Shown: one piece after another, positions 9,540 through 32,000 of the stretch
Layout: each line of letters begins with the position of its first letter
How positions within the stretch are numbered: the stretch's first letter is position 1
From: Candidatus Hermodarchaeota archaeon
GTDB lineage: Archaea; Asgardarchaeota; Heimdallarchaeia; Hodarchaeales; Hodarchaeaceae
Assembly: GCA_048886185.1 (NCBI GenBank)
Contig: JBHLKY010000001.1
Coordinates: 240,001 to 272,000, forward strand
DNA length: 32,000 nt
Reading direction: 5' to 3'
Notes under the pieces: model-generated
Told to the model about the DNA's origin: nothing
The model's input: the letters and a program-made list of their open reading frames with translations, nothing else
The model's database searches: none
Made by a program: the position numbers and the translations under genes

Positions 9540-10439
9540 ATGCCTCTTCTCTCAGTTAAAGTTTTTAATGGAAATAACATTGAATTGAATTCGACTGTGT
9601 CCATTTCAAGAGATCATCGAATTTATGAATTAATTCCACTTATTGGAAGATTAGCACGAGAAGCGATTCAAAAAGAACAGACTCATGGATTAATTATTAA
9701 TGATCAATTGATTGTTTTTTGTACCATTAATGATTTGATGCTGGTCTCAATTGCTACTCGCAATACTTCTTTTCAAAGAGTTGAATCATTTTTAAAGCTC
9801 CTTAGAGAATATCTAAGTAATCATCTTCAATCTTCCCAAGCCCTTGTATCCTCAAAAGATTTTCAAGATTTATGTAATTCAATAGTAAAAACTATTGATG
9901 ACTCAACTAAAGAAATAAAAATCTCTCTTCTCGGATTGGATCGTTCAGGAAAAACTACTTTTCTTAATTTCCTAAGGGAAGAACAACCTCTAACTGGGTT
10001 CGAATCTTATAAGCCAACACAACTCCTTGATATAATTAGAATCGATTCCATAAGTAATCTACCCCAAATCCAGTTTATTGATCTTGGGTATGCTTTTCGA
10101 CAGCATTGGTGGAGATTTAGTAATGAATCTGATGCATATATTTTTTTTGTAGATAGCTCCGATTCAAATCGAATAAAGAAGTCTCAGGAGTTATTCAAGG
10201 AAATTCGTAACTTCTGGGATCGTCCTTTTGTAATTGCAGCTAATATGCGTGATGTAAGCAAAATTGTTAACATTAGGAAATATCTTGCCCGTAAGTTTAG
10301 TATTTCAAGCAAGAAAATCTATGAAACGAACACTTGGACTGGGGATGGCATTTTTCCTCTTCTTGAAGGATTAATTACAGAAGAGATGCGAAAAATTCAA
10401 ATTGCACCTATAATCCATTCAAATAAACGTGAGACATAG
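9540..10439 (+). CDS. N-terminal longin-like domain fused to an Arf-like small GTPase with degenerate G3/G4 motifs
   Basis: GLDRSGKTT (G1), KPT (G2), FIDLGYAFRQHW (G3 region), YIFFVDSSDSNRI, AANMRD (G4), TGDGI. The ~120-aa N-terminus has a beta-beta-alpha-beta-beta-beta-alpha-alpha-like pattern; the longin assignment is inferred. Confidence 0.75.
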   Translation: MPLLSVKVFNGNNIELNSTVSISRDHRIYELIPLIGRLAREAIQKEQTHGLIINDQLIVFCTINDLMLVSIATRNTSFQRVESFLKLLREYLSNHLQSSQALVSSKDFQDLCNSIVKTIDDSTKEIKISLLGLDRSGKTTFLNFLREEQPLTGFESYKPTQLLDIIRIDSISNLPQIQFIDLGYAFRQHWWRFSNESDAYIFFVDSSDSNRIKKSQELFKEIRNFWDRPFVIAANMRDVSKIVNIRKYLARKFSISSKKIYETNTWTGDGIFPLLEGLITEEMRKIQIAPIIHSNKRET

Positions 10440-22793: not shown

Positions 22794-25700
22794 ATGAAGG
22801 ATAAGGTTAAAACATTGTATTCCATAAAAAATGGATTTAAAATTATGGTTATAGGCATTTTACTCCTAAACAGTCTCTCAATCACAATTTCTTGTAGTCA
22901 AGAAAAGAATTCTGACACTCAAAACTTCATTCTTGATATATTACGAGGTTTTGGCATAACAGGAAAAAAACAAGGGCCTTATCGTGTATTACCACACCTT
23001 ACAAGCACTTCTCAAATAAATCATCAATCAAGTATTAATATTACATCTGGACCACGTTATAGTTGGTCTGAACCAAATTGGCCCTACAAGAAAAATATAA
23101 CTATACTGGCTTCAAAGATCAGTGCTGATCTGACTAATTTTCCTCTAATGATAGATCTTTTTGATTCAGATTTAAGAGATACATCAAAAGTTCAAAACTC
23201 TGGGGAGGATATATTATTTATTAATGAAAACGGCTGGACTTGGACAGATGAACTTTTAACGAATGGTGGTTTTGAAACTGGGAATTTAAATGGGTGGATT
23301 ACATCAGGTAACTGGGAGGTGGGTACAAATCCTCCTATGGGGAATAAAGGGCCTCAATCAGGTAGTTTCTGCGCTTATACTACTGATGGTGGTAGTACTA
23401 CTGATTATATTCAACAAGATGTAGATCTTTCAAGTTACATAGATTATATCGATAGTGGTAAAGTTATTGCTAATGTTTCAGCATGGGCTGTAATGGCGGA
23501 GGATGATTTTGATGAAACAATTATCAGGTTTCAATATCTTGATGCTTCGAAAACAGTAATATCAGCTGTATTAGATACTGGCATACAGATGCCTAGCGTA
23601 TGGACTAAATTTTCCGCACTCTTGAGTCCTATCCCTGTCAATACTAGATATATTAGAGTTTGGGCAAGATGTCATGAACTTGGTTGGGACGCTGGTAGTG
23701 TTGACAGTTTTAGTGTAAAAATTGCAAATATGGGGGTAAAATTAGACCATGAAATTGAACTTTTTGAACAAACATACAACACAACACATGCTCATTTAGT
23801 TGCGTGGGTTAAAACTAATTTGTCAAGCTCTCAAAATACATTCTTGTCAATGTATTATGGTAATCCCACTGCTGGAAATCAAGAAAACCCAGTTGCTGTC
23901 TGGGATGAGAATTATGTTGGTGTGTGGCATTTAGGGGAAGAAAGTGGGAGTGCTACAGATTCTACAACTTATGGAACTAGTGGAACAATTTCTGGAGGAG
24001 TAACGCAAAATATATCTGGAAAATTAGGGAAAGGATATGATTTTGATGGGAATGACGGATCATCAGTGCTTTTTGGTGATCCAGGGGATGGGCATTTAGA
24101 TTTTGGTTTAGGCAGTTTTACCGTTAGTTATTGGATGAATATTGACCAGAGTACTAGTGACTACCAATTACCAATTTATAAAGGAGGAACAACTAATAGT
24201 GAGGCTGGGTATGAAATGGAAACAAATCCAACCGCTGAATCTATTGATTTTATGACTTCAGATGGAACCACAGCCTATTCAAGTGGTAACGCTGGTGTTA
24301 CATTTGACACCTGGGCTTATATGGTTGGAGTGGTTGATCGATCATCTAATTATATTTATCTTTATCAAGATGGGAATGATCAAGGGAGTTCTAGTATCAG
24401 TTCGCTAGGAAGTGTGGATAATTCCCATAGTATGGCCTTATCACCAAATCCTTATCCTGTTGACGGAATGATAGATGAAGTACGAATTTCTAAATCCATT
24501 CGCTCTTCTGCATGGATTGAAACTGAATATAATAACCAATACGATCCTAGCAGCTTCTATTCGATGGGAGAAGTTGAATATAAGTGGGCTTTCCCCACAT
24601 TTGCATATAGAAAAGCAATAACAATAAATGCCACCAAAATAAGTGGAAACTTTACCGATTTTCCCGTCCTTGTTAATTATTATGATAGTGATCTCCATGA
24701 TCCTACCAAAGTACAATCTGATGGTGATGACATCCTTTTTACCAATGTAGTTGGCACACAACTTGACCACGAAATTGAACTTTTTAATCAAAATGGAAAT
24801 GGAACACATGCCAATTTAGTGACTTGGGTAAAAGCAAATCTTTCGAGTGTAGAAGACACTCTCATTTTTATGTATTATGGTAATTATGCAATTGAAAGCC
24901 AAGAGAATCCAGAAGGTGTTTGGGATTCCAACTTTAAGATGGTTCACCATTTTGATGAAACAACAGGTACAACTTCTTATGATTCTACAAGTAATAATGA
25001 AGATGGAACAATTATGGGTAGTATTAGTCTCGAGGTAACGGGTAAAATAGGAAATTCATATCAATTTAACGATACATCTCTGGATCAAAAAGTAGGATTA
25101 CCACCTTTAGGAACATTAAATGCATTCACAATGGAAATTTGGGTGAATCCGAATACTGGTGAGAAAGAAGCTATTTGGGGAAGGGAATTCACAATCGGAT
25201 CAAATGCGCAAGGAGTAGGGATTACATACTCAACATACGACCCCAAACAATTTGGTGCAATCATACCTAATGGAGCTGAGGGATCAGGGAGTACGAGAAT
25301 AGATATTAATGCAAATAGTGAAACATCAGTAAATGCATGGAATCATCTTGTTGTTATATATAATGGGTCAGTTCTTAGGATGTATGTTAATGGAGTTGAA
25401 GTGGCAGATTCACCTAAAACTGGTATGAGTTCTCCTAATTATTTATTTACTCAAGAACCATATTCTCCTTATATGGGATCATATTTTGGCTATACAGGGT
25501 ACAATTGGAACGCTGAAGAAGAATATTTTGACGGTAAACTTGATGAAGCCCGACTTTCAGATATCGCAAGAAGTGCTAATTGGATATTAACTGAATACAA
25601 TAATCAATATAATCCAAGTAGTTTTTATTCAATTGGAGAGGAAGAGGAAAAAGAAGGACCCCCAGCTATTCCAGGTGAATACTATGTAAACAATGACGGA

Positions 25701-28700
25701 TCTAATGTTGATTATTCAGGTGATATGGGGAATTTAGAAGATTTTAATAATATGAAAGGTAAGGATTTGAGTTATGCAAATCTTCAAGAAACAGCTGCAG
25801 TTACAATTGAATGGAATGAATCATTTGAAACTGTTAATGGTGTTCAATCTTATACAAGCGAGAATTGGTGGACTGATTACTGGATTCAAGACACCACTGA
25901 TGACTATAATTGGAGTATTAGCGATACATACCAGACTCCCTCAGCCAATACTGGAGCTAGTGGAGCCCAGCAAGGCACATGGTTTATTTATACAGAAGCT
26001 AGTAGCAGCAGATATGGTAATTTTATTCTTTATACTGCTAATAGTATAGATTTCAGTAGTTTAAACAATGAGAAAATCGAATTTTATTGGAATATGTTTG
26101 GTGCTAATATTGATGCTCTTTATCTTGAACAGAATACTTCGGGATCTTGGTCAAGTGTTTGGAGTCAGGTAGGAGCAGGTTCACCAGATCAATCTACATG
26201 GAATTTTTCTTCTGTTGATTTAAGCGGTCTAAGTGGAATCGGTTTCCTTAGATTTCGCGGTGTTACTTCAGGTGGTTATGCAGGAGATATCTCTCTCGAT
26301 AATGTTAACATAACCTCTATAGCACTTACTACTAATTACCGTCTAGAACAGGAAATTCAATGGACAAATATACCTTACGAATTTGAAAAAGAAGAACTTT
26401 GTTTATATGTCGGAACGACTGGTACGGAGGATATAATTGTAGAGGTTTGGAATGGGAGTAATTGGGTACAGGTTTTTAGTGATTTAATCGCTAATTCATG
26501 GAATAATATTTCAATTACTAGTTATCTGAACTCTTCTACATTCACTGTACGTTTTATTGATGGTACACAAACCTCTGATAACACAACACAAGATCAATGG
26601 CAAATAGATGCCGCCTTAATTCATGTTTGGAATGAGGTAATTGATGAAACACCTCCTGTGATCAATGATTTTGGAATAGATGATTCGGGAACTGGAACAG
26701 GGAGATTTTGGGCTGATGTGATAGATACTGGATCAGGAGTAGCAAATGCAACTATAAAAGTTAATGGAACTAATTATAGTATGAGTTATAACGGTAGCTA
26801 TTGGATTTATCAGCTGCCATCGCTTTCATTTGAAGACTATTTCAGCTATCAAATTGTAAACAGTTCTGATAATAATGGGAATTTCTTAATTAATCCATCA
26901 AACGAGGAAGCTTATACATTTGATTATGATATATTAGCTCCTACAGTCGTGGATTGGGAGTACTACAACACACTCGAGCTATATGGCACCTTCAAGGCGA
27001 ATATTACTGATTCCTGGGGAGAAATCGATACTGTGCGGGTGAATGTCACTACGTACAACATGCAAGCCCTCATGGGACAATACACTACTTTTGGAAGTAC
27101 TATCTTTGCATATTTGAACGATACACTCGAGATGCCTAATGGGCTGATGGATTTTCAGATCATTGTTAATGATACGGCGGGGAACGAGTTCATCTCAACC
27201 ACACATCAGGGAGATGTCTTTTCTAACCACCCCCCCATAGTAGAGAATCTCACGCTCAGTCCCGCTATCCCCTGGAGTAATTGTTCTCTCACCCTCACCT
27301 ATGATTATTATGATGAAGATGACCACAGTGAGGCAGGAACCGAGATTCGGTGGTACAAGAAGAATGACTCTGTTTTCCTGTTAGAATCTGCTTATAATGA
27401 CACTAAGGTGATTCCTGCCTCGGCTCTGGAGGTAGGGGATCAATGGTACGTCAATGTCACCCCGAAAGATGGGGAATTATTTGGTGAGACAAACACCTCT
27501 GCCATCATTACTGTTTTAAATACTCCTCCGTCAGCTTCCAATGCTGTGGTCTTTTATTCAGGTGCCATTCCCTATACAACTTCGACCCTCAATATTGATT
27601 ACACTTATGACGACCATGAGGGGGATGGGGAGGATAGTACGAACCGTCAAGTGGAATGGTATCGAAATGGCGCGCATTATCCTGCGCTTGATAACAGCAC
27701 GAGTGTCTTGCCAGGGAACACTACCAAGGGGGAGACCTGGGCTTATCGGCTCCGTGTCCATGATGGTACCGGTTATTCCAGCTGGGTGACTTCTGATACT
27801 ATCCTGATTCGCAACAGTCTACCGCAAGCAGTCAATCTTGCATTACCCTCTAATCCGACCACGCTGGATGATCTTGTGGCTGATTGGGACATGATTGATG
27901 CTGATGGGGATTCGGAAGATCTCGGGGCGGTACTCATCTATTGGTATAAAGATGGGGAAAATCAATCTACTTGGGTTAATTCAGTGACCATTGGGGCGGG
28001 GAACACCTCTAAGGGGGAGACCTGGCGGTTTGAGATTCGGGTGTATGATGGGGAAAATTATTCGGTTGTGACCCCCCTCAATCCGCCTGTGGTGATCCTT
28101 AATTCTGTGCCCACCGTGAGTACTGTCGAACTTGCTCCGACGATTCCCGTCACCACCGATGGTCTGACTGCGACTTGGGAGGATGCTGATGTTGATAATG
28201 ACGCTCTTACATATACCATACGGTGGTATATTATGGGCGTGGGCTTACAAGCCGCTTACAACGATCTATCAACTGTCCCTGCTAGTGCGACTGTCAAAGG
28301 GCAGATTTGGTACTACAACCTTACAGCTTTTGATGGAGAGGATTATTCCCTGGAAGTAAGCTCACCTCAGGTCACGGTTCAGAATACCCCTCCTGAGGTA
28401 AGTAATTTAGCTCTTACTGCTGCTCCCAAGACGATGACTAATCTTGTGGCGAGTTGGAGTGCTGCTGATAATGACACTGGGGATTCCTTAACCTTTAATG
28501 TTACCTGGTACCTTGAGGGAGTAGTGAACTGCAGTTGGCTCACCTCCGCCACTAGTGCGACACTGACTGCAGGGAACACCACCAAAGGTGACCGCTGGTC
28601 GTTTACAGTTCAGGCATATGATGGGGAGGCGTATTCCAGTGTTATCTCCCTCGGGTATAATCGGACTATTCTCAACACTGCCCCAGTAGTGGCAAACCTT

Positions 28701-31700
28701 ACGCTTACCTCCATGCCGACGACCACAGATCCTTTACTGGCTACCTTTGATTATTCCGATGCAGATCTTGCAGATAATGCGAGTCTCATCTTTAATATCA
28801 CGTGGTATCGGAATGGGCTGGAACAAAGCGCTCTCGCCAATACCACCAGTATTGGTTCAGGAAATACTACGAAATCCGAGTTCTGGTGGTTTACCGTCCA
28901 AGCCTATGATGGAGAAAGTTTCTCTTTGAAGCTCGAGTCGGTTCATGTGCAGATTCTCAATACTGCCCCTGAGGTTAGCAATCTTGTGATTACTCCGCTG
29001 AGTCCCATAACCACCATGGTTCTCAGTGCGAGTTGGGATGAAGTGGATGCAGATGGCGATAGCCTGACTTATACCATTCGGTGGTATGTCGTGGGGCTGG
29101 GGCTGCAAGCGGCGTACAACAATTTACTGAGTGTTCCTGCCAGTGCGACCGCCAAAGGGCAGGCCTGGTACTACAACCTTACCGCCTTTGATGGAGCCGC
29201 TTTTTCCATCGAAACCAGCTCCTCTCAGGTTGTCATCCAAAATTCTTCTCCCGAGATCGATTCCCTCGTGGTCACGACTAATCCGACCACGCTGGATGAC
29301 CTGATTGCTGGTTGGAACGCTAATGATAATGATACCGGGGATTTACTAACCTTTAATGTTACCTGGTATCTGAATGGGGAAGTAAATTGCAGCTGGTTAA
29401 CGTCCACCTCTAGTACTACCCTCGCTGCGGGAAATACCACTAAGAATCAGCTCTGGAATGTGACCGTACGGGCATATGACGGGACATCTTATTCCAACAC
29501 AATTACTCTAGCGACTAATATCACTATCCTCAATTCTAAGCCCACCGTAGAAAGTCCTTCTTTCAATAACACCTCTCCTGATGCAGTGGACGATTTTCAG
29601 ATTACTTACACCTTTGTGGATGCGGATGCTGGAGATGTTGAAGATCCAGGGAAGATGATTGTCTATTGGTATGTCAACTGGAAGTATAATGCCACTTTCC
29701 AGAATCAGACCACGATTTATGCTGCGAATACCACTGCCACAGAGGTGTGGTATTACATTCTCAGGGTGTTTGACGGGGAAACATATAGTGATAATGTCAC
29801 CTCGGAACAGGGGGTCTATATTGGGGGTGGCAGCACCAACACACGTCCGCTAGCTATCGATCTAACATTAACTCCTGCGTCTCCTCTCACACATGAGGCG
29901 CTCATTGCGAATTATAGTTTCTCTGATGGGGATCTCGACCCCCAAGTTGCGTATGAAATTCGCTGGTATAGGAATTCTGGTGGTGGCTTCCAGCTCCAGT
30001 CCCAGTATAATAATTTATTCATTGTGCCAGCGAGTGCCACCTCCAAGGGGCAGGAATGGAATTTTACCGTGAGAGTGTTTGATGGTATTCAATGGAGTGA
30101 GCTCAATGTGTCTACCACGATCACAATTGCAAATACGAACCCTGAGGTTACCATCGCTGATATTACCACGGATCCTCAAACGACTGATGATCTGGTAGCT
30201 AGTTGGACTTCGAGGGATAATGATAGTGATAGTTTAACTTTTATCCTCACTTGGTATATTAATGGGATTGAAAATGCCACGTTTGCAAATAAGACGGTGA
30301 TCGGAGCGGGAAACACCACCAAAGGAGAGAAGTGGTATTTCACTGTCCAGGCCTATGATGGGGAAGGATTCTCCAATGTGTTCCCATTGGCTGCGAATGT
30401 CACCATCCTGAATACCGCCCCAACAGCGGATAATTTAATCATTACCACTAATCCTACGACTATTGATGATTTAGTAGCAACTTGGGATTATTTTGACATT
30501 GACAATGATCCCCGAGATGATGGGCTAGCTCGGATTTGCTGGTTCAAAAATGGGGAAAACCAAACTGCATTAACTAATCAAAAAACTATTGAGGCCACTA
30601 ATACCTCTAAAAATCAGGTTTGGTGGTTTACAGTCCGTGTCTTTGACGGGGAGGACTATTCTGGGCTTTATGAGTCCGCTCACATACAGGTCTTAAATAG
30701 TATTCCTATGGTGGGAAATTTGGAAATTAGGATGTCAGACCCCAAGACCACAGATGAGTTAGAGGCTCAATGGGTTGCTGTTGATGATGACAACGACATC
30801 CTAAGCTACACCATCAAATGGTATAGAGATGCTGTCTATCAGTCAGCTTGGGATAATGAGATCACAATTCCTGCCAGTGCCACCTCAAAAGGCGAAACCT
30901 GGTATTTTACTTTGAAAATGTTTGATGGGAGCGAGTATTCCTTAGAAGAGACCCTTAGTCCTGGTGTCCTTATTCTCAATACTCTTCCTGTCGTTGAAGA
31001 CCTGGCGTTAACCCCGGATCCTCAAACGACTGATGATCTGATAGCTAGTTGGATGTCGAGGGATAATGATAGTGATAGTTTAACTTTTATCGTTACCTGG
31101 TATGTCAATGGGATTGAAAATGCCACGTTTGCGAATAAAACGGTGATCGGGGCGGGAAATACTACCAAAGGGGAGGAATGGTATTTTAGTGTCCAAGCAT
31201 ACGATGGAGAAGGATTCTCCAATGTGTTCTCACTGGCTGCGAATGTCACCATTCTGAATACCGCTCCCACAGCGAGTAATTTGATGATTACTACTAATCC
31301 CACCACGCTTGATGACTTAGTTGCTGCTTGGGATTATTTCGATGTAGACAACGATCCCCGAGATGATACGCTAGCTCGGATTTGTTGGTTCAAGAATGGA
31401 TTGAATCAAAGCACTTTAGTCAATCAGAAAATCATTGGGGCAGGTAATACCTCCAAGAATCAAGTCTGGTGGTTTACTGTTCGTGTCTGTGACGGGGAGA
31501 CCCACTCGCTTAGTATCTACGAGTCCGCTCACATTTCTATTCAGAACTCTCTACCTTATAGTTCCTCCGCTCTCCCCATTCCCGTGAATCCTTCTAAGGC
31601 AAATGGCCTAGTATTGACTCTACCTGCCCTTCTTGCGGCTCTCTCAGACCCTGATCCGAGTGATGACATTGAAGTAGTCAGGATTCGCTGGTATAAGGAA

Positions 31701-32000
31701 GGTGTGCTGCAAGGGACGTTAAATGACTCCTTAATCGTTCCTGGAACCCGATTGACTAAAGGAGAGAGGTGGAATTATTCCATTGTGCCTTTCGATGGAG
31801 TCGGTTATGGGGTGGTGTGTGTGTCTGCGGAGATAGTCATCTTAAACTCTCGACCGACCATCATTAACACTTATTTCACGGCAACAACTGTTACCACCAT
31901 TAGCAACCTCGTGATCAGCTATCAAGCGGAGGATGCCGATGGGGACCCTATTATTGTCTCAGGGGTCCGCTGGTATCGGTATGATGCAGGGATTCCTGGG
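22794..32000 (+). CDS. Giant secreted adhesin-like surface protein, at least 3069 aa, truncated by the window end: signal peptide, 2x(DUF2341-LamG), MAM, Ig-like domains, then >=17 Ig/cadherin-like repeats
   Basis: Absent from the ORF track, consistent with having no stop inside the window. ATG 22794 gives MKDKVKTLYSIKNGFKIMVIGILLLNSLSITISCSQ. The same frame was read by hand through the domains to ...DADGDPIIVSGVRWYRYDAGIPG at 32000. Confidence 0.9.
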   Translation, partial: MKDKVKTLYSIKNGFKIMVIGILLLNSLSITISCSQEKNSDTQNFILDILRGFGITGKKQGPYRVLPHLTSTSQINHQSSINITSGPRYSWSEPNWPYKKNITILASKISADLTNFPLMIDLFDSDLRDTSKVQNSGEDILFINENGWTWTDELLTNGGFETGNLNGWITSGNWEVGTNPPMGNKGPQSGSFCAYTTDGGSTTDYIQQDVDLSSYIDYIDSGKVIANVSAWAVMAEDDFDETIIRFQYLDASKTVISAVLDTGIQMPSVWTKFSALLSPIPVNTRYIRVWARCHELGWDAGSVDSFSVKIANMGVKLDHEIELFEQTYNTTHAHLVAWVKTNLSSSQNTFLSMYYGNPTAGNQENPVAVWDENYVGVWHLGEESGSATDSTTYGTSGTISGGVTQNISGKLGKGYDFDGNDGSSVLFGDPGDGHLDFGLGSFTVSYWMNIDQSTSDYQLPIYKGGTTNSEAGYEMETNPTAESIDFMTSDGTTAYSSGNAGVTFDTWAYMVGVVDRSSNYIYLYQDGNDQGSSSISSLGSVDNSHSMALSPNPYPVDGMIDEVRISKSIRSSAWIETEYNNQYDPSSFYSMGEVEYKWAFPTFAYRKAITINATKISGNFTDFPVLVNYYDSDLHDPTKVQSDGDDILFTNVVGTQLDHEIELFNQNGNGTHANLVTWVKANLSSVEDTLIFMYYGNYAIESQENPEGVWDSNFKMVHHFDETTGTTSYDSTSNNEDGTIMGSISLEVTGKIGNSYQFNDTSLDQKVGLPPLGTLNAFTMEIWVNPNTGEKEAIWGREFTIGSNAQGVGITYSTYDPKQFGAIIPNGAEGSGSTRIDINANSETSVNAWNHLVVIYNGSVLRMYVNGVEVADSPKTGMSSPNYLFTQEPYSPYMGSYFGYTGYNWNAEEEYFDGKLDEARLSDIARSANWILTEYNNQYNPSSFYSIGEEEEKEGPPAIPGEYYVNNDGSNVDYSGDMGNLEDFNNMKGKDLSYANLQETAAVTIEWNESFETVNGVQSYTSENWWTDYWIQDTTDDYNWSISDTYQTPSANTGASGAQQGTWFIYTEASSSRYGNFILYTANSIDFSSLNNEKIEFYWNMFGANIDALYLEQNTSGSWSSVWSQVGAGSPDQSTWNFSSVDLSGLSGIGFLRFRGVTSGGYAGDISLDNVNITSIALTTNYRLEQEIQWTNIPYEFEKEELCLYVGTTGTEDIIVEVWNGSNWVQVFSDLIANSWNNISITSYLNSSTFTVRFIDGTQTSDNTTQDQWQIDAALIHVWNEVIDETPPVINDFGIDDSGTGTGRFWADVIDTGSGVANATIKVNGTNYSMSYNGSYWIYQLPSLSFEDYFSYQIVNSSDNNGNFLINPSNEEAYTFDYDILAPTVVDWEYYNTLELYGTFKANITDSWGEIDTVRVNVTTYNMQALMGQYTTFGSTIFAYLNDTLEMPNGLMDFQIIVNDTAGNEFISTTHQGDVFSNHPPIVENLTLSPAIPWSNCSLTLTYDYYDEDDHSEAGTEIRWYKKNDSVFLLESAYNDTKVIPASALEVGDQWYVNVTPKDGELFGETNTSAIITVLNTPPSASNAVVFYSGAIPYTTSTLNIDYTYDDHEGDGEDSTNRQVEWYRNGAHYPALDNSTSVLPGNTTKGETWAYRLRVHDGTGYSSWVTSDTILIRNSLPQAVNLALPSNPTTLDDLVADWDMIDADGDSEDLGAVLIYWYKDGENQSTWVNSVTIGAGNTSKGETWRFEIRVYDGENYSVVTPLNPPVVILNSVPTVSTVELAPTIPVTTDGLTATWEDADVDNDALTYTIRWYIMGVGLQAAYNDLSTVPASATVKGQIWYYNLTAFDGEDYSLEVSSPQVTVQNTPPEVSNLALTAAPKTMTNLVASWSAADNDTGDSLTFNVTWYLEGVVNCSWLTSATSATLTAGNTTKGDRWSFTVQAYDGEAYSSVISLGYNRTILNTAPVVANLTLTSMPTTTDPLLATFDYSDADLADNASLIFNITWYRNGLEQSALANTTSIGSGNTTKSEFWWFTVQAYDGESFSLKLESVHVQILNTAPEVSNLVITPLSPITTMVLSASWDEVDADGDSLTYTIRWYVVGLGLQAAYNNLLSVPASATAKGQAWYYNLTAFDGAAFSIETSSSQVVIQNSSPEIDSLVVTTNPTTLDDLIAGWNANDNDTGDLLTFNVTWYLNGEVNCSWLTSTSSTTLAAGNTTKNQLWNVTVRAYDGTSYSNTITLATNITILNSKPTVESPSFNNTSPDAVDDFQITYTFVDADAGDVEDPGKMIVYWYVNWKYNATFQNQTTIYAANTTATEVWYYILRVFDGETYSDNVTSEQGVYIGGGSTNTRPLAIDLTLTPASPLTHEALIANYSFSDGDLDPQVAYEIRWYRNSGGGFQLQSQYNNLFIVPASATSKGQEWNFTVRVFDGIQWSELNVSTTITIANTNPEVTIADITTDPQTTDDLVASWTSRDNDSDSLTFILTWYINGIENATFANKTVIGAGNTTKGEKWYFTVQAYDGEGFSNVFPLAANVTILNTAPTADNLIITTNPTTIDDLVATWDYFDIDNDPRDDGLARICWFKNGENQTALTNQKTIEATNTSKNQVWWFTVRVFDGEDYSGLYESAHIQVLNSIPMVGNLEIRMSDPKTTDELEAQWVAVDDDNDILSYTIKWYRDAVYQSAWDNEITIPASATSKGETWYFTLKMFDGSEYSLEETLSPGVLILNTLPVVEDLALTPDPQTTDDLIASWMSRDNDSDSLTFIVTWYVNGIENATFANKTVIGAGNTTKGEEWYFSVQAYDGEGFSNVFSLAANVTILNTAPTASNLMITTNPTTLDDLVAAWDYFDVDNDPRDDTLARICWFKNGLNQSTLVNQKIIGAGNTSKNQVWWFTVRVCDGETHSLSIYESAHISIQNSLPYSSSALPIPVNPSKANGLVLTLPALLAALSDPDPSDDIEVVRIRWYKEGVLQGTLNDSLIVPGTRLTKGERWNYSIVPFDGVGYGVVCVSAEIVILNSRPTIINTYFTATTVTTISNLVISYQAEDADGDPIIVSGVRWYRYDAGIPG
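23064..25640 (+). repeat. Two tandem DUF2341 + LamG (concanavalin A-like) modules in the giant protein
   Basis: Unit 1 starts at 23064 and unit 2 at 24585. Both have W...Y(K/R)K.ITI...KIS...T.FP, LDHEIELF, MYYGN...QENP..VWD, DG..DE.R.S...RS..WI.TEYNNQY.PSSFYS. Confidence 0.85.
25806..26320 (+). other. MAM domain within the giant protein
   Basis: GTWFIYTEASS, IEFYWNMFGANIDALYL, VWSQVG...W...VDL and LRFRGVTSGGYAGDISLDNVNI match the MAM consensus (YxEAS; FxYHMxG; GDIAxDDI). Confidence 0.75.
27225..32000 (+). repeat. Tandem array of 16 complete plus 1 partial Ig/cadherin-like repeats (93-102 aa)
   Basis: N-x-x-P repeat starts at 27225, 27519, 27813, 28101, 28383, 28674, 28959, 29241, 29532, 29838, 30132, 30411, 30696, 30978, 31257, 31545 and 31845. 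Consensus: NxxP...L.A.W...DxDxD.....WY..G........TxKG..W...V..(Y/F)DG. Confidence 0.92.

Follow-up and report, generated by a model that had tools for sequence, protein, structure and literature searches.

The window analyzed here, 32,000 nucleotides of contig C1 in the genome of a Candidatus Hermodarchaeota archaeon (G000; 4.84 Mb in 75 contigs, about 35% GC and 96% complete), carries the gene for a giant single-pass surface protein. This gene and all of its parts described below lie on the plus strand. It starts at position 22794, fills the window to its end at 32000, and runs on to window coordinate 35384 (G000:C1:262794-275384). Its product of 4,196 amino acids ends with a membrane span and a 195-residue tail. 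The first part of the gene, at 22794..26615 (amino acids 1 to 1274), encodes a unique tip with a host-like GC3 of about 0.23, and most of it is covered by single long contigs without differences. The tip contains two LamG domains and one MAM domain, in addition to CBM_4_9-like and DUF2341-like stretches that remain under the Pfam cutoff. It is followed at 26658..26921 (amino acids 1289 to 1376) by the first all-beta domain that occurs family-wide; this domain is homologous in all paralogues, is low in GC3, and is not homogenized. From 26946 to 32000, and then on to the membrane span and the tail, extends a multicopy stalk made of repeats of about 95 amino acids, with a GC3 of 0.48. A second copy of the stalk is present at G000:C10:1-7422 (87% DNA identity over 7,432 nt; GC3 of 0.46). 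Named homologues of the protein come mostly from Hodarchaeales or Heimdallarchaeota, which suggests that the genome itself is from Hodarchaeales. Within the class, 20 of 83 genomes match the C-terminal 696 amino acids of the protein, and all 20 are from two families of one order. Elsewhere in the window, at 9540-10439, a 299-residue open reading frame contains an Arf-family small GTPase domain (residues 114 to 276).

The original prediction for this DNA described an abrupt GC switch inside a single open reading frame. The switch is real, with GC3 rising from 0.228 before to 0.477 after it, and the GC counts per 60-nt line, which had been made by hand, were exact in 7 of 7 lines on recount. The best change point in GC3 is codon 1385 (26946), with a 2-log interval of 26931..26958, and its log-likelihood ratio of 103.7 compares with a maximum of 10.0 among 1,000 permutations. 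High identity to the G003 contigs C135 and C147 begins in the same interval. Fourfold-site GC per 100 codons changes from 0.08-0.33 to 0.42-0.70, while codon positions 1 and 2 are nearly unchanged across the switch; hence, this is an effect on silent sites. The possibility that GC3 might prove flat, raised together with the original prediction, falls with these values. High GC3 persists to the last codons of the gene, and a GC3 of at least 0.44 is found in just 7 of the 2,702 open reading frames of at least 200 amino acids in G000 (median, 0.27). The switch had been placed at the start of a second Ig-like domain, and it is indeed at a predicted domain boundary: the D of the motif DILAP is encoded at 26928, and the frame is open throughout. 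In an AlphaFold2 model of amino acids 1275 to 1500 (mean pLDDT of 86), one all-beta domain ends at residue 1376 and the next begins at residue 1384, and the switch sits at the predicted linker and the opening strand of the second domain. Sequencing data, the proposed check on the junction, bridge it: contigs of the public runs X1, X2, and X4, which possibly are the source sample, cross it without a difference, and one of run X7, which belongs to a separate study, does so with 42 mismatches over 392 letters.

Other upstream sequences are joined to the same stalk. The summed contig depth in run X2 is 72-285 from position 26969 onward, up from about 30 before it, although summed depth is no copy number, and other upstream sequences enter the stalk at 26982-27000 in all 4 runs examined, with an additional join at about 26950 in runs X5 and X7. 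The zone where these sequences meet the stalk, 26982..27011, contains the loose ends, the convergence point of the gene on G003:C158 (about 26997), and the end of a 41.8-kb unbranched contig at 27011. The one loose-end 30-mer that we sought in the G000 assembly was absent (0 of 1); hence, that tip is either unassembled or from another organism.

The sister species G003 provides the comparison with relatives that had been recommended. On each of its contigs C135, C147, and C158, one family gene finishes and another begins with its tip, which turns high in GC3 in the same domain as in the focal gene. GC3 in the four junction genes (G000:C1 and G003:C135, C147, and C158) is 0.20-0.25 before the switch and 0.48-0.60 after it. 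Separate phylogenies of the two halves, also recommended, gave different trees. For the 105 amino acids upstream of the switch, the four genes are scattered, with end branches of 0.46-0.87, and for the 255 amino acids downstream, they form one clade with a support of 98 and branches of 0.09-0.15 (quick trees, 42 rows). The genes converge onto the stalk at about 26946-26960 (C1, C135, and C147) or about 26997 (C158), a variability expected from homologous crossing over. The C147 junction also occurs, on a full stalk, in protein P0002 (4,259 amino acids), which comes from another assembly. The stalk appears patchy and is attached to different tips at slightly different points within one conserved domain. 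The presence of four genes with different tips on one stalk in two species supports the suggestion, made from the sequence at the outset, that tips are swapped by recombination.

Synteny places a tandem array of family genes between the end of C19 and the start of C10 in G000, and the focal gene is a dispersed copy outside this array. G000 and G014 share the tip of the first array gene (77% alike), and G003 has a different tip on it. The spacers between array genes have a GC content of 0.27-0.32. The array is flanked on both sides by genes for Gtr1/RagA-type GTPases (G000:C19:88279-92342 and G000:C10:7448-16606), and its surroundings include genes for a metallophosphoesterase, a HEAT/TPR protein, and a tubulin-like protein. 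Short-read assemblies collapse this tip-shuffling array of surface proteins, which our analysis exposes. We rejected a site-specific shufflon: the crossovers lie about 15 codons apart, conservation is lacking at silent sites, and there are just short, chance-like repeats. No recombinase family was detected among the 12 neighbors scanned. We also rejected a diversity-generating retroelement, as the 96% complete G000 has no RVT_1 match; the variation from copy to copy involves all four bases and consists mostly of transitions.

The stalk copies are 87% identical within G000, 84% identical within G003, and 78-79% identical between the species, and 374 of the 507 informative sites group them by species. 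The tree of the C-terminal part, ((C1,C10)100,(C147,C135)96)100, has as its sister a G010 gene with a GC3 of 0.28 (quick tree, 42 rows). The part from stalk to tail is multicopy and is grouped by species where whole 3' ends are comparable. Discordant sites cluster, with 359 being like their neighbors against a shuffle maximum of 320, and C1 and C10 share an identical run of 198 nt (shuffle maximum, 87). Both observations exceed the shuffles, yet assembly paths through repeats could partly mimic both. At some stalk sites, the letter of the window occurs in no contig of the runs examined. The discordant trees and the step in identity at 26946-26997 show a regional homogenization with a discrete boundary.

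The switch is the edge of a multicopy stalk. On balance, we think that this stalk is probably under concerted evolution with a conversion-linked, gBGC-like GC bias, in which repeated copying pushes its silent sites toward G/C, and that the tip keeps the composition of the host. We hypothesize that homologous recombination within the tandem array, and between the array and the dispersed focal copy, homogenizes the stalk and swaps the tips. Homogenization would reach all that lies downstream of the second domain, and a bias in the repair of mismatches in heteroduplex DNA would raise GC where partners exist. As in gBGC, GC3 is raised in the converted part only, its equilibrium is above that of the genome, and nonoptimal G/C codons have also become more frequent. 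We withhold membership in gBGC because the symmetry test failed: the shift is not strand symmetric and uniform across codon families, as simple gBGC would predict.

The divergence of the stalk was compared with that of ordinary genes. For 115 of 144 open reading frames from G003, the best hit in G000 was full length, and 75 of these were above 70% identity; in these 75 pairs, a median of 52% of fourfold sites differ, the median identity is 77%, and fourfold GC is 0.24-0.25. The corresponding values for the stalk between the species are 48-52%, 78-79%, and 0.53-0.58; the stalk has thus diverged to the same degree as ordinary genes but at a far higher fourfold GC. A nonstationary model over 496 sites gave an equilibrium GC of 0.54 and rejected the host value of 0.25 by 27.9 log units. 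Terminal branches alone also rejected the host value, with equilibria of 0.47 in G000 (7.2 units) and 0.54 in G003 (11.9 units). Within the 211 most tree-like sites, a 3' subset, the G000 terminal branches do not reject the host equilibrium (1.7 units), and parsimony counts on the same subset indicate an equilibrium GC of about 0.40. Simulated decay (25 runs) produced a statistic of at most 3.8, compared to 52.9 observed. The silent sites of the stalk are at a GC equilibrium near 0.5, above that of the genome, and are not decaying to 0.25.

A raised GC3 recurs elsewhere. We surveyed 78 stalks taken from hit lists, which do not contain every family member, and dropped 2 for which there was no background. 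After exclusion of the focal clade and of the membrane and tail portions, and with breakage at contig edges as a proxy for repeats among kin that are not independent, GC3 was at least 0.07 above that of the own genome in 12 of the 36 broken stalks versus 1 of 32 fully assembled ones. Broken stalks exceed complete ones in 10 of 11 genomes, and raised stalks lie at or beside genes of the array locus in G000, G003, G006, G010, G014, and G019. The relation of GC3 to an assembled partner is not significant when the focal clade is excluded (rho of 0.19, P of 0.12, 69 stalks). An unrelated repeat gene for a surface protein of 12,625 amino acids (G000:C15:81941-119818) shows a gradation of GC3 with the DNA identity of its internal repeats, from 0.248 (no partner) to 0.263 (below 70%), 0.293 (70 to 75%), and 0.387 (at least 75%); it also has a GC3 step of its own, from 0.35 to 0.27, near codon 6141. 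Genome-wide, the duplicated part is the higher one in GC3 in 12 of 19 genes (mean of +0.03, P of 0.04). Some array members stay low, namely, the 3' end on G003:C158 (0.29) and the stalk start of the second gene on C155 (0.26), and G003:C90 has partners and a GC3 of merely 0.39. The gene on G014:C292 (L134:2986-9900) shows the reverse arrangement, with a GC3 of 0.44 in the tip and 0.34 in the stalk. Apart from C74 (0.36) and the distant C38 (0.33), the remaining paralogue frames in G000 have a GC3 of 0.21-0.28. Within the focal stalk, GC3 dips to 0.20-0.36 at codons 3250 to 3400 (window 32544-33000), where the summed depth is also lower; less homogenization in this stretch was not borne out, as C1 and C10 are 88-90% alike there.

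Every one of the homogenization and equilibrium results would also be expected if concerted evolution operated without any repair bias and the GC gain came from weak selection for G/C, amplified by recombination and copy number. The uneven response of the codon families is easier to understand under such selection: compared to the low-GC paralogues, the log-odds at fourfold sites shift by +1.66 for G/A, +0.89 for C/T, and +0.59 for T/A, and those of NAR and NAY codons shift by +0.94 and +0.33, respectively. The focal codon shift is common to the C74/C155 lineage (rho of 0.74). Selection is also preferred to gBGC for bacteria in the available text of PMC11879095. However, the tip and the stalk are on one mRNA, and selection for translation fits poorly. 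The clearest biased gene, that of actin (G000:C2:134527-135669; GC3 of 0.45), shows a preference for twofold codons that end in C (Phe, 0.90; Asn, 0.58) and an avoidance of fourfold codons that end in G, and genes for EF and chaperonin show no bias. Unlike in actin, G-ending fourfold codons in the stalk rise from 0.11 to 0.26, with the optimal codon set judged from few genes. The pattern of the stalk is the reverse of that of actin, and we rejected translational selection. Selection of some kind in place of a repair bias appears rather unlikely to us.

The original prediction proposed a chimeric gene in which a host-like tip was joined to a foreign stalk from a higher-GC donor. The chimerism stands, given the discordant trees and the four tips on one stalk, and the tip is host-like and unique. 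The donor lacks support: no homologue above 52% was found outside the own and the sister species among 400 genomes of the phylum, the stalk shows no decay toward host composition, and it is native and multicopy. In its strongest form, the donor would be an unsampled Hodarchaeales lineage or a codiverging mobile element, whose stalk spread to several paralogues by crossing over in the second domain. The sharp break at a recombination boundary speaks for such an origin, as does the A-poor, NAT-keeping codon pattern, which is like that of mid-GC genomes; moreover, the sampled kin are incomplete assemblies, and repeated imports would mimic an equilibrium. Against it, the best match outside G000 and G003 was at 52% in a search of 400 genomes of the phylum, 15 of them with a match and 3 candidates scored per genome. 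A search of genome contigs yielded three loci: two of them, at 78-79%, carry the title Ca. Hodarchaeota, and the third is at 36%. A metagenome scan found one locus at 49%, and none of the 47 and 5 pattern matches for a viral relative or carrier was confirmed. The sister gene in G010 has a GC3 of only 0.28, background GC3, sampled in 19 related genomes (2 to 36 open reading frames each), reaches 0.37-0.42 at most, and decay would require a fourfold GC of 0.8 in the ancestor. In addition, three stalk lineages that are 45-52% alike (focal, C74/C155, and G010 336k) are all raised, and every assembled tip in these lineages is host-like. We regard a higher-GC donor as unlikely, and copying between paralogues explains the switch better than a foreign stalk. 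Intragenic GC steps in Asgard genomes hence need not mean horizontal transfer.

At fourfold sites of the stalk, A drops from 0.35 to 0.15 and T from 0.39 to 0.30. Such a loss of A, far exceeding that of T, is what would be left by a strand-polar process of mutation or repair in recombination tracts, e.g., error-prone repair synthesis or mismatch filtering, that removes A from the coding strand and raises GC as a by-product. Consistent with this, GC3 excess and ln(T/A) covary over 68 nonfocal stalks (rho of 0.55), and local plus-strand genes share the sign of the T/A skew, weakly. The outcome was ambiguous when the skew was tested against replication-strand polarity. However, C rises as much as G, and the homogenized parts of C15 and C22 gain GC without an A-specific loss. 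The lack of RVT_1 and the transitions in both directions between copies argue against a retroelement-type A-to-N process. We consider a strand-polar cause improbable.

That the switch is an assembly chimera or an effect of amino acid composition is almost certainly wrong: repeats do fragment these assemblies, and several copies may be mixed in the consensus of the stalk, but the contigs of X1, X2, X4, and X7 that span the junction rule out a chimera, homologous junctions occur in the three G003 genes and in P0002 from another assembly, and composition is ruled out by the shift in GC3 and at fourfold sites and by low-GC paralogues that have the same domains at a GC3 of 0.21-0.28.

A conversion bias in favor of GC is well known in eukaryotes and disputed in microbes. 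The dispute persists because the prokaryotic evidence consists of gene-level correlations, which selection can explain as well. The focal gene makes the question testable, because one mRNA has a unique and a multicopy part with a twofold step in GC3 within 10 codons; the step recurs in several lineages, and an unrelated gene shows it in graded form. Among the closest counterparts of concerted evolution with a conversion-linked bias are mammalian paralogue pairs with gBGC, where, in the available text of PMC2720389, the raised GC3 is likewise confined to the concertedly evolving part and nonoptimal G/C codons also become more frequent. Unlike the mammalian and bacterial cases, the process proposed here is ectopic and takes place in an archaeon, and its shift is neither uniform nor symmetric. 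The bacterial gBGC hypothesis is based, in the portion of PMC4450053 at hand, on gene-level correlations of allelic recombination, and the accessible part of PMC11879095 disputes it. Intermolecular gene conversion in Haloferax volcanii is described in the accessible sections of PMC8223754 as very efficient, with kilobase tracts, and GC content might not set its direction there. That conversion is allelic, between genome copies, whereas the conversion proposed here is between paralogues. In the open-access literature, taken without supplements, we found no published account of this gene family or of such a GC step in archaea.

The arrangement resembles the protocadherin clusters of fugu, which, in the available text of PMC1852091, are tandem adhesion genes with divergent 5' parts and homogenized 3' parts separated by a discrete boundary in the ectodomain. 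GC3 in these genes is about 40% before the boundary and 54-69% after it, and the shared part confuses assemblies (PMC1852091). The focal genes differ in being archaeal and intronless, in having one copy, the focal one, outside the array, in their strand-asymmetric shift, and in that their copies are 84-87% alike, compared to more than 99% in fugu (PMC1852091). Membership in the protocadherins is withheld because no cadherin family was found in Pfam scans of the focal protein; protocadherin is an analogy only.

The cytoplasmic tail, encoded beyond the window end at window coordinates 34790-35384, has a mean column identity of 71% in 18 paralogues. Its 195 residues were modeled with a pLDDT of 85, and the top Foldseek hits of this model are a chain of the FLCN-FNIP2-Rag-Ragulator complex (E value of 4e-5) and a Lokiarchaeote longin (E value of 5e-4), with TM-scores of only 0.39-0.53. 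The tail is predicted to adopt a longin fold that is joined to the giant ectodomain via one membrane span. The best fold matches of the focal tail are among longin regulators of Rag GTPases (FLCN-FNIP, GATOR1, and Asgard longins; available text of PMC10933270), from which it differs in that a membrane span links it to a giant ectodomain. In the main text of PMC10933270 on Asgard longins, the word "transmembrane" is absent. A Rag-like open reading frame is located about 300 bp away from the first array gene, compared to a background of 1.2% within 3 kb. Such a frame is present within 12 kb of 2 of the 8 tail-bearing open reading frames in G000 (C9, 28 bp; C10, 7 kb), and none is present within 12 kb of the focal gene. 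A complex prediction for the longin tail with the Rag-type GTPase of the array scored 0.31 against a mark of 0.32 and allows no verdict. The protein likely works as an adhesin or receptor whose tip varies while its stalk and signaling tail are constant. Hodarchaeales are among the closest archaeal relatives of eukaryotes. We tentatively raise the possibility, which we would not call likely, that they already had a GC-favoring conversion bias predating meiosis and that it acted in a protocadherin-like receptor array, with swappable lectin tips, a homogenized stalk, and a longin tail signaling to neighboring Rag-type GTPases.

Three tandem genes that are about 82% alike, at G000:C2:82281-88035, have a GC3 of 0.40-0.44 without an A-specific loss. 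Just past the focal gene, at window coordinates 35611-35884 (G000:C1:275611-275884), lies a fragment of 274 nt with 94% identity to the end of a gene on C16, and it is apparently a remnant.
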